A DNA stretch of 64,000 nucleotides from Eledone cirrhosa. Taxonomy: Eukaryota. This document shows, one piece after another, positions 20,180 through 55,018 of the stretch. The DNA lies in NCBI GenBank assembly GCA_964016885.1, contig CAXHJY010001087.1, positions 62,001-126,000 of the forward strand. The letters run 5' to 3'. Each line of letters starts with the position of its first letter. The first letter of the stretch is position 1. Below the pieces are notes generated by a model. It did not search any database. It saw only the letters and a program-made list of their open reading frames with translations, and was not told the origin of the DNA. The position numbers and the translations under genes were made by a program.

Positions 20180-20224
20180 AGTCATAGTCCTTTCGTCACA
20201 CACTCTGTGACCTCTTCAGTGACT
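20180..20224 (-). ncRNA. Minimal type I hammerhead ribozyme (family A, left arm)
   Basis: Reverse complement of 20777-20821. Confidence 0.7.
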
Positions 20225-20776
20225 GGGGATTCCTTTCTTTGTTTCTGTGCCTTTCCTTTCTTCTATCCTACGCCATTTTGTTTCTGTGTGTGTGTTGTGT
20301 GCTCAGTTTGCGCATGCGCCACATCCGGGTGTCTGTGTGTGTTTGTGTTCATTTATCTATTTATCCACACACAGAAAAGACACAATGTTTAGGCAAATTA
20401 CAGAGGCAGTAAGCATAAAAGAATTAAAACCAAAATTAAATAGAAAATATGAGTGGAACAGCAACATCACAACTTACAATTAAGGACAAAATGAAAACAC
20501 ACACAGGACAAAATGAAAACACACACACACATAGAACAAACAACTTACAATTAAGGACAAAATGAAAACACACACAGGACAAAATGAAAACACACACACA
20601 CATAGAACAAACAACCAACCAACAATAAATAAATAAACAAATAGATAAATGAACACAAACACACACAGACACCCGGATGTGGCGCATGCGCAAACTGAGC
20701 ACACAACACACACACAGAAACAAAATGGCGTAGGATAGAAGAAAGGAAAGGCACAGAAACAAAGAAAGGAATCCCC

Positions 20777-20821
20777 AGTCACTGAAGAGGTCACAGAGTG
20801 TGTGACGAAAGGACTATGACT
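20777..20821 (+). ncRNA. Minimal type I hammerhead ribozyme (family A)
   Basis: AGTCA-CTGAAGA-G-GTCACA gagtg TGTGAC-GAAA-GGAC-TA-TGACT: stem I AGTCA/TGACT, stem II GTCACA/TGTGAC, CUA site; stem III is very short. Confidence 0.7.
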
Positions 20822-21139
20822 ATATATAAACAGCTATCTGGTTGTGGAACCAACCAACCAACCAGAAATTTATAAGTTTGTAAATTTATAAATTTATAAA
20901 TATATAATAAATTGAAGTGAAAGCAACTGGTGCGTGTGTTTCTTATTGGCAACATGACCCTCCCAAAGTATAACAATATCGGTTTCAACACACGATTTCA
21001 GATAAAGAATCTTGCTAAACAAATTCAGAAACGAAATATATATATATATACACACACACACACACATAGCGTCATAATGTCATAATGCAGACAGCAGACA
21101 CACAGACAGATATTATAAGGGCGCAACGTTATATCTATG

Positions 21140-21350
21140 TATCTATCTAAAAAGAAAGACTAAGAATTATAGAGAGACATCGCTAAATTGCCTCATGCGG
21201 TCCCTAGGGCATTGAACATTTAAAATTTGTTTTGCTCAAAACACTCACAGGACCATAAGAATTACATGTGTAAAGTTTGAAAACAATCGGTTGGGTGGTT
21301 CTCGAGTTTTAGGGAGTCAGACAGACATTCTCTATTTTAGATGTATAGAT
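21140..21350 (-). mobile_element. Helitron/Helentron-like non-autonomous remnant
   Basis: Ends ...CAGACAGACA...TTTAGATGTATAGAT, resembling the terminal part of the 45676-46442 element. Confidence 0.4.
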
Positions 21351-24300
21351 AATATCAGTCAGAATAATGTCCTTTTCTACAACTATAAATTGCGAAAAAG
21401 TAAATTAGTAACATTTTTCTTTTGTTTCATCAGTGTAATCTACACATTTGCGAAATTTCACTAAGTCATACAGTATTAGGACACAATGAGGGGACACAAT
21501 TATTATAGCCTTTTTATTAGATTAACAGAAATATAATTATGGAATTATTTTCGAAAATTGATGAAAACGAGAGAAACAAGAACAGTGATTCTTAGTTCAT
21601 AATTTTTTTGTTCCTACTTCAGTGTAATTGTTTGTGGAGAAAGAATTGGCTAAAGCGTTATTTAACCCTTCTGTGTATAAAAAAAACATTTATAATGTTC
21701 TAATTACCAGCTCAATCATGATGAAGTTAGTTATGTTACTAAATTCCTCCAAATTTTTATTTTCAAAATGAATTGAAGATCACAGGCAATGTGTCTCATA
21801 AGAAATGGATAACTTTCTTTCATGAATCACAAAAGTAACATTTTTATATTAACGTAAAAAAAAACATCCGTAATCTATGGAAAAGATTATTTAATTTAAT
21901 CGTAACAAATTACAAGATATTTTAAGAAACAAAGAAAAAGGAAAACGAAGAATGGTTGGAAGTGGAAATAATGAGAATTTGTTTAGGAGAAAAGGAATCA
22001 ACCGAGTTTTTCTTGCCTCTTTTTACCTCCCAAAATGTGTGTGTATATATATATATATATAATTTGTGTGTGTGTGTATATATATATATATATACAATTT
22101 GTGTGTGTGTGCACATATATATATATAAAATAAAAGAAATATATATATATATTATGTGTGCGGAATAACCTTATCACACAAATATCTATACTAGAGACCT
22201 CATAGCTGGGGAAGTAAAAAAAAAAATGAAAAAAAAAAGAATATATATATATATATATATATATAAAAGGGTAGTCATTGTTCAAGTGTTTCTTGTTATG
22301 AGAGAAAAAAAGAGGAGAAATTAGGTCGGCCATGGAAGGGGAAACAAAGGGAAGCAACCTATGGCCGCAGCACAGTTCTCTTTCTATCTCTCGTTAAGTG
22401 GAGGCTGGAATGTAAGTGCTTCATCTCTTACTTTCGAATCAACTCAACTCCCCAAAATAGTCAAACATTCTCCCTCCCTTCATCTCCTATATACAAGTCA
22501 ACCACACTGAAATATCAATATTTTTAGTATCTTCACTCTTGTTTTATATATATAAATTTTCTCACTACTTCTCTCCCCTCATCTCCCATACACAAGTCCA
22601 CCACAGTAAAACACCAATATATTAGCACTCACTTCACCCGTGTATATATATATTTATTAGGAATTTTGTCCGACGGCTTAGCTTTAACTGTTTCGAGAGC
22701 AAAATGATTTTGCTGTCGTTACGGTTAAAGCTTAATATCTACATTTTATTTTCCTAAATATAGAGTACTAAGTTAAATAATGGTCTTATTACTCTTAACT
22801 AGTAACATCTCACCCACATATATGGAAAGGAAGACAGATAAATAGATATTCTTAAGCTCTCATACACATGTCTTAGACAGTGAAACACCAATGTTTTCGT
22901 GTGTTAGTGCTTACTTCATCCTTAACATTTCATTCTCTAGCTTTCCCTTCGAGTCAATAATGAAACACCTATCTTAAATATAACGTCTTTCCTCTTACAT
23001 GTCCGATATACAAGTCCACAGTGTTATATAAATTCTATAAACACCAAATTGCTTCCACATGTCAGATCTACTAAAAACAAGACCACGGTGTAAAACTAAT
23101 TCTATAAACACGATCTCACTTGCACCGTAACATCAATCACATCAATCAGTCTTATATATTCTTCCTTCATATCTGATATATAAGTTTACAACGAAACAAA
23201 ACATGTCCACAGTAAAGCATCGTTCTTCTAATGGCAAACCCACTTTATGACACTTTTCATGTTTACACCAGCATCTATCTTCAATATATTCTTTCTCACC
23301 CTTATGTTTTAAGATCCAAACGTAGAGTGCCTCTGTTAGAAATAGCAGCCAAATCTCCCTTAAATCACACCCTGTCTGTTTTTAAAACGGAAAGGACATG
23401 TTCTAAAAAAGCGAGATGGTCACGGGTAGAACGAGGCTTTGATTAGTCAAAGCTAACTTGAAACAAAACAACCGTTCTTTTAAATATTATTATTTGTCAA
23501 CTTTGCCTTTCATCGTTCCGGGACCGATAAAATGAAGTACCAGTCATATTGGTATCGATTTAATCGACATTCCCCTCCCAGTCACTGCTGACCCTGTGCC
23601 TAAATGGAATTATTATTTATTTATTTATTCACCATCAAGCTTTATCTTATATTTCCCATTCAAGCCACAACTTTCCTTAATATCGAATAAGTCTCTGGGA
23701 ACGGAAGAAAGAAGAATTATTTATTATTGGACGGGATCTTTCTTGAGTATTACTTTTTATTAATGTGTGTCGAAGTCTGGGTATTTGGATTTGTTTAGAG
23801 TAATAATAAATTAAAATGTTCTTCGTAGTTTCTAAAGATTATGGTTTCGTTCTTTTGTTCGGTTTCCCAGCCAAAATTTGTTTACATGCATAAGATAAAC
23901 ATGGATGTGTATATAAAGCCGAGATAAAATCCTTTATATATTCTTGTCAGGATATGTATAAGCCGAAAGAAAACCTTTGTATATATTTGTTAGGTTGATG
24001 ACCGATTTGTTCTTGTATTTTTAAAAATAGTCCTTCGTCGTTTTCATGTTATTTTGAATATCTGTTGAGAGAGAAGAATTTGGTGGAAACCAGGCCAGAA
24101 ACGATAAATTCTCTCTCGTGGAGATATTTCCGGTATTATTTATTTATGGTTATGTTAGCAATGGAAACATGCATTTGGAATCAATTTGAAATAAATACAT
24201 ACACAAAGTAATGGACAGTAATAATAAAATAATGAACGAGGAAGAAAAGAAAAAAAACATGTACGCTCATTCAATTACGCGCTACAACGGAATATTGGTA

Positions 24301-53429: not shown

Positions 53430-54152
53430 TGAGGAACAAAGCTTGCATGCTCCGTTGGATGTGTAATAGTAATATACGTGAATGGCAAAGCATAAATGAA
53501 CTAAGTGAGAAATTAGGAATAAGAGGGATCAGATGCTGTTTACTCGAGAGAAGACTACGTTGGTATGGTCACGTGATGCGCATGAAAGACGACAGCTGTA
53601 TAAAGAAGTGCAGGGCGATCAAAATTGATGGTAGCCACGGAGTAGGCAGACCCAGAAAAACCTGGGACAATTTGATAAATTCCGACCTTACACACACCTC
53701 TCCAAGACAATGTCACTGGATCAAGACCTTTGGTGCTACGCAGTAATACAGAAGACCGGCCTTGCCTAAGTACAAAGCGAAACATACAGTCAGTAGGCAC
53801 CTCTTAACCAAAATACCCCCTATCCCACTACCCCCACCCCCACCCCACCCCCATCTACACCACCCCTTTCTCTGTAAAGTTATGTTGGTACCACAACATC
53901 CAGTCCTAAATAAATGAGGTTGTGTAGGTGTCACGACAAAAAAAAAAACACGCTGTAATGTGGCCGTATAGGTAACACGGTATAAACCTCCCAGTCCACA
54001 CTGTAAACATGGTTGTTGTTAGGAAAGGCATCCAGCCGTAGAAAACCCGCCAGACAGTCCTATACGAGCAAGACGACCAATCTTGCCTCAAGTGGGACAA
54101 TTCCCATCTAAACCCATGCTAGCGTGAAAGATAGATGTTAAACGATGATGAT
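53430..54152 (+). mobile_element. RTE LINE 3' fragment (same family, plus strand)
   Basis: RNKACMLRWMC...[11 protein letters not shown]...GRPRKTW; 3' UTR and (GAT)n tail. Confidence 0.85.
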
Positions 54153-54397
54153 GATATATATATATATATATATATATATATATATATATATATATATATA
54201 TATATATATATATATATATCTGTGTGTATATATATATATATATTGATTCTTTAGAATTTGCCACTGACCAAGTAGGCAGTGAATTTTTTCAGTGCCCTGG
54301 AATTTAGTCCCCGCTAGCTTTATTCCATCCACTGAATTATTATTTTTATATGGGTTCCTAGTGTCCGCGCATTGCCTGGGAACTTAGTTGAGAATAG

Positions 54398-54479
54398 ACT
54401 CCCTGATGACGTAAGGACTTCTCTATAGTTACATTACGTAACTATATTTATTCCCTTACAGAAACTAATTAGTTGGAGT
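54398..54479 (+). ncRNA. Type I hammerhead ribozyme (family I, copy 1)
   Basis: ACTCC-CTGATGA-C GTAAGG..TATAGTTAC attac GTAACTATA..CCTTAC A-GAAA-CTAATTAG-TT-GGAGT; GUU site at 54474. Confidence 0.85.
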
Positions 54480-54936
54480 GGAAATTTTAGTAAGTAAGTT
54501 AATTTTTAATTTTTAAAATTTTCTTATTTTACGTCTTTCATATAATTGTTCTGCATCCCCTGCATAGAACCACAAAGGTACTAAGACATAACATATATAT
54601 TTGCTAGCATGGGTATACATCTGTATACATATGTTGGTAGATATACCAATTCTCTATATTTATCTCCAAATTATTTGTTGAACGAAACTTGCCAAAATTT
54701 ACTGCTATGGTTCATGGTAGTAGTTAGGCTCTTGTCATAATACCACCTCACTCCTCACTGATTAACCTCAGTGTCACGTGATTGATTCTTTAGAATTTGC
54801 CACTGACCAAGTAGGCAGTGAATTTTTTCAGTGCCCTGGAATTTAGTCCCCGCTAGCTTTATTCCATCCACTGAATTATTATTTTTATATGGGTTCCTAG
54901 TGTCCGCGCATTGCCTGGGAACTTAGCTGAGAATAG

Positions 54937-55018
54937 ACTCCCTGATGACGTAAGGACTTCTCTATAGTTACATTACGTAACTATATTTATTCCCTTACAG
55001 AAACTAATTAGTTGGAGT
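54937..55018 (+). ncRNA. Type I hammerhead ribozyme (family I, copy 2)
   Basis: Same sequence as 54398-54479; GUU site at 55013. Confidence 0.85.

Follow-up and report, generated by a model that had tools for sequence, protein, structure and literature searches.

Type I hammerhead motifs carried by Penelope-like elements and probable retrozymes of the octopod Eledone cirrhosa

Fifteen hammerhead ribozyme (HHR) motifs within 35 kb of a single contig of the octopod Eledone cirrhosa raise the question of what these sequences belong to, how they came to lie together and whether they are likely to cut. The stretch that we analysed, hereafter the window, covers 64,000 nucleotides (contig CAXHJY010001087.1 of assembly GCA_964016885.1), namely bases 62,001-126,000 of that contig, which measures 131 kb, the assembly as a whole amounting to 3.0 Gb; the GC content of the window is 36% and it holds many (TA)n tracts. 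The original prediction had seen there a hotspot of about nine unrelated motif families and, behind it, a diverse and probably largely unannotated community of non-coding elements mobilised by the proteins of Penelope-like elements (PLEs). Our analyses make it very likely that the motifs are type I hammerheads lying in the 3' repeats of PLEs and of retrozymes, each of them likely inserted separately into (TA)n by the reverse transcriptase (RT) and endonuclease of PLEs.

Fifteen hammerhead motifs from nine insertions

All 15 motif starts agree with the positions originally given, and each motif possesses stems I and II and an NUH cleavage site. The type I core (CUGANGA/GAAA/NUH with three stems, open at stem I) is intact in 11 of them, ten being canonical and one bearing a U3-A8 pair: both copies of families A, D, G and I, the single motifs of E and H, and the B copy at 35429 (Table 1). 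The cores announced as intact are so except at 46950 (family F), where the core letters are preserved and 9 nt of stem II, present in 14 of 15 family copies, are missing. As for the sites announced as variant cores, 35429 is the intact U3-A8 motif, 35544 (family B) is damaged by a G5A change, and 37960 and 42158, the two copies of family C, are non-canonical; the former has lost one C of stem I, and the CUGUUGA of the latter is private to that copy, the family reading CAGUUGA. The B copy at 35544 is likely dead as a ribozyme, and none of the 22 core-bearing copies from other searches carries G5A. The idea of a propagating G5A subfamily was dismissed as an effect of query bias, since the 14 G5A copies had all come from the search with the G5A copy; in the G5A pairs the partner arm is wild type in four cases out of four. 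Stem III, predicted to be palindromic in most motifs, is perfectly self-complementary in six of the eight families checked (out of nine) and nearly so in G, and that of family A has a central G.A mismatch. Taken together, the 15 motifs stem from nine insertion events, and the nine families are not wholly unrelated, since E and F have the 5' strand of stem I in common.

On the window, a strict type I descriptor returned seven canonical motifs and one U3-A8 motif, against means of 0.02 and 0.03, respectively, in 100 block dinucleotide shuffles, and a tolerant descriptor returned 12 motifs against a mean of 0.07 in 30 shuffles. Behind each motif family stands a dispersed repeat with 243-3,152 first-look candidates, figures that are not to be read as copy numbers. 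In family I, 7 of 23 pairs are changed on both sides, one stem II pair occurring in four forms, and the covariation score is reached by none of 500 shuffles (the alignment holds nine rows picked for diversity, relatedness is not controlled, and two of the stem I changes form a paired indel); paired changes are also seen among relatives of B and D. Among the 150 of 165 Rfam matches listed for the window there is no hammerhead, which agrees with the view that the motifs are largely unannotated. Judged by their sequence, the 15 motifs are genuine type I hammerheads, the intact ones being candidates for self-cleavage.

Parents of the families and probable mode of insertion

A PLE open reading frame (ORF) lies at most 1.8 kb upstream, on the same strand, in 23 of 44 copies of A, 26 of 45 of C, 15 of 49 of E, 5 of 33 of D and 6 of 31 of B; by the same measure it was found in none of the 60 copies of I, 37 of H and 35 of G. 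In A, B, C, D and E an ORF with RT and GIY-YIG domains precedes the HHR-bearing repeat. The two domains are joined by a CX4CxxC linker in the long loci of A, the long loci of B encode a Poseidon-like RT, and those of C show a tandem arrangement of pseudo-long terminal repeat (pLTR), ORF and pLTR (L320) with a reduced linker. We take A to be Neptune-like, B Penelope/Poseidon-like and C Nematis-like from linker motifs, clades being assigned by motif alone for all families. Family E displays all Hydra-clade features (DKT, a CxCX5C linker, CxxC and CxH, no CCHH, a (TA)n target), and D has the Hydra linker and C-terminal motifs, DKT being not seen in the recovered frame. The nearest named relative of the PLE protein of the window comes from Octopus bimaculoides (54% identical).

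Families G, H and I are made of non-coding tandem units with one HHR each, as expected of retrozymes. Units of I are arranged head to tail, measure 531-539 nt and form arrays of up to about nine units, the repeats of H measure about 420 nt, and G shows three units at one locus (L322), spaced 403 and 357 nt; the units fold much more strongly than shuffles, with z = -4.4 (G), -7.8 (H) and -6.6 (I). No parent ORF was found for F, the F-type cluster having one PLE ORF upstream in 22, and that match being unrelated. The nine families divide into five 3' ends (pLTRs) of coding PLEs, three tandem non-coding retrozymes and one family without a parent found. The assignment to PLEs and retrozymes therefore stands, and so does the diversity of families in the genome, 31 motif clusters being present in the sequence retrieved; the picture of a community of non-coding elements does not, five of the nine families being truncated ends of coding PLEs.

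How were these copies inserted? Two discrete 3' ends, both abutting (TA)n, occur in A (15 and 15 of 30 copies), B (12 and 25 of 40), C (3 and 16 of 19), E (17 and 9 of 28), G (12 and 12 of 24), H (11 and 15 of 30) and I (20 and 17 of 63, with 25 others continuing into the next unit). Family D has a single 3' end in 28 of 28 copies, the D reference itself having stopped at the short end. Inverted arms are found in A-E, and in A, B, E and G the tail stands on one arm only of the pair. Motif insertions and (TA)n arrays are correlated across 87 stretches of 10 kb (rho 0.37, p 0.0004). A tail made by two internal RT start sites has been described as unique to PLEs, together with nicking of AT-rich DNA (PMC11167929; here and below, statements on published work concern the parts of each source that we consulted). 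Since this PLE-only tail is present on G, H and I, along with 5' inversions and (TA)n targets, the sequences point to mobilisation of the retrozymes by PLE proteins, as had been proposed.

Five inverted pairs bear two hammerheads on opposite strands; they are 5'-inversion by-products and not cis dimers, so that read-through RNA would be expected to fold into a long hairpin and not into a dimeric ribozyme. Family I has the sole pair of the window that could dimerise in cis. Divergence between units of I amounts to 3.2% for the 94 pairs from one locus and to 6.1% for the 2,321 pairs from different loci, and as one array is near-uniform and another mixed, circles and multimers are both possible templates. 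At one locus (L323, G000:C4:181133500-181141500) unit variants return about every third unit, which suggests a trimeric template or a higher-order repeat.

The claim that several hammerheads are followed directly by a poly(A)-like signal proved true in part: AATAAA or ATTAAA comes after the cut in B, C, D and F and straddles it in E, and is absent after the hammerheads of A, G, H and I, hence from all three retrozymes. Within 25 nt of the cut, A[AT]TAAA occurs in 13 of 31 motif clusters, which are not fully independent, against 6 of 124 control windows. No link between hammerheads and a poly(A) signal turned up in our literature search; the signal may have a role in PLE hammerheads.

Some further observations concern single families. 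Both D copies of the window and 7 of 12 displayed D copies (L059, L061, L062, L066, L069, L071, L074) start near-identically about 70 nt before the core, which would point to a short non-autonomous form or else to microhomology with (TA)n. Outside the D arms lies an inverted duplicate (43006-43195 and 43353-43542), absent from the other 38 top D matches and perhaps due to a template switch or to a duplicated target. Splice-donor-like words stand soon after the hammerhead in C (~42210) and I (~54490), and in C the probable ORF start, 265 nt past the core, immediately precedes the long 3' end.

Table 1. Hammerhead-bearing insertions of the window and their parts (clade labels by motif).
Family	Feature	Position	Strand	Remarks
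A	insertion	20022..21036	.	5'-truncated, 5'-inverted 3' end of Neptune-like PLE
A	HHR	20180-20224	-	
A	HHR	20777-20821	+	
A	3' tail	20980-21036		right arm only
B	insertion	35361..35719	.	inverted 3' end of Penelope/Poseidon-like PLE
B	HHR	35429-35466	-	U3-A8, intact
B	HHR	35544-35581	+	G5A
C	insertion	37750..42452	.	5'-truncated PLE, two inverted arms
C	RT + GIY-YIG frame	38370-40079	-	
C	RT + GIY-YIG frame	39816-41767	+	frameshifted
C	HHR, variant core	37960-37995	-	CAGUUGA
C	HHR, variant core	42158-42193	+	CUGUUGA
D	insertion	42841..43707	.	two inverted 167-nt 3' ends, Hydra-clade PLE
D	HHR	42886-42941	-	
D	HHR	43607-43662	+	
E	insertion	43889..45633	+	3' part of Hydra-clade PLE; endonuclease remnant 44050-44319, 1.2-kb untranslated region
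E	HHR	45533-45603		
E	inverted arm	43889-44051		bears tail; only 3' half of HHR
F	insertion	46545..47046	+	3' end of high-copy element; related to E via stem I
F	HHR	46950-47005		9-nt deletion in stem II
G	insertion	47919..48280	.	inverted pair, probable non-coding retrozyme
G	HHR	48015-48074	-	
G	HHR	48190-48249	+	
H	insertion	52427..53090	-	tandem retrozyme unit of ~420 nt; inverted 5' piece 52913-53087
H	HHR	52681-52723		
H	second copy	50114..50376	-	truncation inside stem II, 3' half of HHR only; not in the original prediction
I	insertion	54243..55078	+	1.55 units of 539-nt tandem retrozyme
I	HHR	54398-54479		
I	HHR	54937-55018		

Genome-wide load and the variant core of family C

Is the window a special place? 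A sample of 87 evenly spaced 10-kb stretches (870 kb) yielded 64 motifs, where three shuffles gave 1, 0 and 0; with two further variant cores added, the figure rises to 67 motifs in 57 insertions, that is 77/Mb, which extrapolates to 234,000 motifs in the genome (bootstrap 169,000-303,000) or about one per 13 kb. The eight detected insertions per 64 kb of the window have a P of 0.07, or 0.17 when set against small chromosomes. Motif density is thus a property of the whole genome, the window being modestly richer than the rest, and the hotspot claimed at the outset finds no support. A true local hotspot, for instance a host-selected RNA-cleaving cluster beside C2H2 genes (10332-11693 and 26456-27532), would fit the eight descriptor-positive insertions within 35 kb (bootstrap P 0.004); this span, however, was picked with hindsight and scored with a descriptor tuned on it, the remaining 65 kb of the contig hold one motif, single 10-kb samples reach up to 4, 69 of the 89 (TA)n arrays of the window lie at 42-55 kb, and copies are decaying, as seen in the F deletion and the G5A of B. 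We regard such a hotspot as very improbable. Still weaker is the case for chance matches in AT-rich, repeat-rich DNA: the stems I of E and F are indeed AT-rich and there is no hammerhead among the Rfam matches listed, but the motif numbers of window and sample over shuffles, the hundreds to thousands of first-look candidates per family and the covariation of family I led us to reject chance, to which we give practically no weight.

Published loads amount to 126,247 motifs in the 28 Gb of axolotl, about 5,000 in mussel and more than 6,000 in coral, and to 4,000-9,000 per genome in coelacanth and Xenopus for PLE hammerheads; descriptors differ, and the comparison with our ~77/Mb is a rough one. 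No report of cephalopod hammerheads turned up in our literature search, and the word "ribozyme" is absent from the main text of a paper on O. vulgaris repeats (PMC13282606). The families are new and their kinds are known, namely PLE pLTR hammerheads and non-LTR retrozymes.

Family C deserves separate treatment. When positions 4, 6 and 7 are allowed to vary, its pattern has 2,899 matches genome-wide against 0 in the control, and among the first 100 listed 96 read CAGUUGA (U4A+A6U) and none is canonical, so U4 and A6 are not conserved in this family. Subfamilies about 83% identical all read CAGUUGA and vary in loop II (GUGA, GCGA, GCGAA) and loop III (UAUA, UA). An alternative register, UUGAUGG, was ruled out, stem I and the G10.1-C11.1 pair being broken in it. 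Out of 39 metagenomic loci with relatives of C, 16 bear a hammerhead of the same build just 3' of the ORF (11 C3-G8, 2 U3-A8, 1 G3-C8, 1 A3-U8 and 1 U4C), and CAGUUGA occurs in none of these 16; the scan totalled 19 matches, shuffles giving 2-7, and four of the loci belong to a single family. Because related PLEs carry canonical motifs of the same build after the ORF, the C motif is a genuine homologue bearing two core changes specific to its lineage; it may be active or vestigial. U4C and A6C are natural variants of low activity (PMC3088659); for the U4A+A6U double core the literature search returned none, the possibly relevant variants of Lunse et al. 2017 lying outside the comparison. It is worth adding that the A3-U8 and G3-C8 core pairs belong to PLE hammerheads of metagenomic contigs (L362, L368), and that another motif group of this genome (L191, L274, L137, L221) shows a CCGANGA (U4C) core in several copies.

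Possible cleavage and circularisation, and relation to known systems

The following sequence of events would account for the copies seen. The GIY-YIG domain would nick AT-rich DNA, the RT would start from either of two internal positions that lie 50-250 nt downstream of the ribozyme cut, and, as both lie beyond the cut, the RNA copied would be uncut or re-ligated at the ribozyme; priming from both strands would yield the inverted arms. We lean, with some reserve, towards the idea that in retrozyme transcripts paired hammerheads swap their palindromic stems III, excise monomers and circularise, circles or multimers then serving as templates. As to the single and inverted copies in the genome, they are probably inert by-products. 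Retrozymes of mussel, coral and axolotl do cleave and form circles (PMC7229834).

Several points weigh against this account. No accumulation of 5' ends at the cut site was seen in any of eight families, a weak test as most loci were chosen for long matches. In one PLE, ribozyme mutations left insertion in vitro unaffected, and reads ending at the cut were absent (PMC11167929); among Xenopus retrozyme dimers one in nine cleaved (bioRxiv 10.64898/2026.07.22.740005), and published minimal HHRs (min-HHRs) cleave poorly even as dimers (PMC4209133). For H taken alone, the covariation falls short of significance, 28 of 500 shuffles reaching its score. Finally, the retrozyme call for G stands on few tandem loci, F is still without its parent, and G, H and I have no source PLE assigned to them.

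Some of these points would be expected if the hammerheads were catalytically marginal passengers, the arrays arising from uncut multimers or by unequal crossover and the fold being kept for, e.g., protein binding. The missing surplus of 5' ends at the cut and the dispensability of ribozyme activity for insertion in vitro fit that idea, as do the ~2,900 copies that C reached despite two core changes and the heterogeneous, partly periodic units of the L323 array. Yet C3-G8 covaries to U-A, G-C and A-U among related PLEs, cores are constant over 31 clusters while stems vary, and the animal retrozymes just cited cleave and give circles; we therefore hold marginal passengers to be unlikely, though deserving serious attention. 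It is tempting to go further and to hypothesize that octopods bear one of the densest hammerhead loads among animals (~2 x 10^5), including an active CAGUUGA core in which A4 possibly pairs with U7, that a PLE ribozyme before a poly(A) signal acts as a switch removing the mRNA tail, and that signal-less retrozymes are circles copied by the PLE RT from the same two start sites. We consider this extension speculative and rather doubtful. The role of hammerheads in PLEs is described as an open question (PMC8557442, PMC11167929).

Returning to PLE and retrozyme hammerheads inserted by PLE proteins, most of their traits have precedents. Min-HHRs in pLTRs, opposite-strand pairs 100-700 bp apart and U3-A8 are already known (PMC4209133), and our motifs share with them the type I build, a palindromic loop 3, the location of most copies on truncated PLEs, the unpaired base after A9 (here in A and C), U3-A8 (here in B) and the same spacing of opposite-strand pairs. 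They differ in that several families (E, G, H and I) are without the G10.1-C11.1 pair and have an extended stem II, which reaches 51 nt and includes an inner hairpin; the U4A+A6U core is absent from the results and discussion text of that work. Like the animal non-LTR retrozymes (PMC7229834; bioRxiv 10.64898/2026.07.22.740005), G, H and I consist of non-coding units in tandem, each a few hundred bases long and holding a single type I HHR; the units are GC-poor and strongly folded, and they co-occur with PLEs. The units of H and I (420 and 539 nt) are longer than the 170-400 nt given for invertebrate retrozymes, and G, H and I carry the PLE two-site tail and 5' inversions, traits not described for retrozymes in the passages compared. 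With the Hydra, Neptune, Penelope/Poseidon and Nematis PLEs (Craig et al. 2021, PMC8557442) our elements have in common a C-terminal GIY-YIG, inverted 5' copies, tails, (TA)n targets and HHRs, as well as the Hydra motifs in D and E, whereas the tails are 40-115 nt here and 30-40 bp there. What appears to go beyond the literature compared is the footprint of the PLE tail on retrozymes, the CAGUUGA family and the split of the poly(A) signal between PLEs and retrozymes.

The remainder of the window holds other features. The two C2H2 zinc-finger genes are single-frame, lie on the + strand and have poly-Q or poly-H tracts. A hAT-type transposase with a C-terminal dimerisation domain is broken over three frames (32455-35128, +), and a long interspersed element (LINE) lies in fragments at 1435-5004 (-), where an RT frame, a second frame resembling an endonuclease and an ORF upstream are recognisable. 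An array of a 24-bp unit with strong strand skew covers the last 4.3 kb up to the window end (59682-64000).

A hammerhead motif every 13 kb would affect long transcripts in octopods. Recently active coding PLEs, tail-bearing retrozymes and a high-copy core variant occur together in this genome, so that cleavage, circularisation and PLE-dependent mobilisation would be directly testable.

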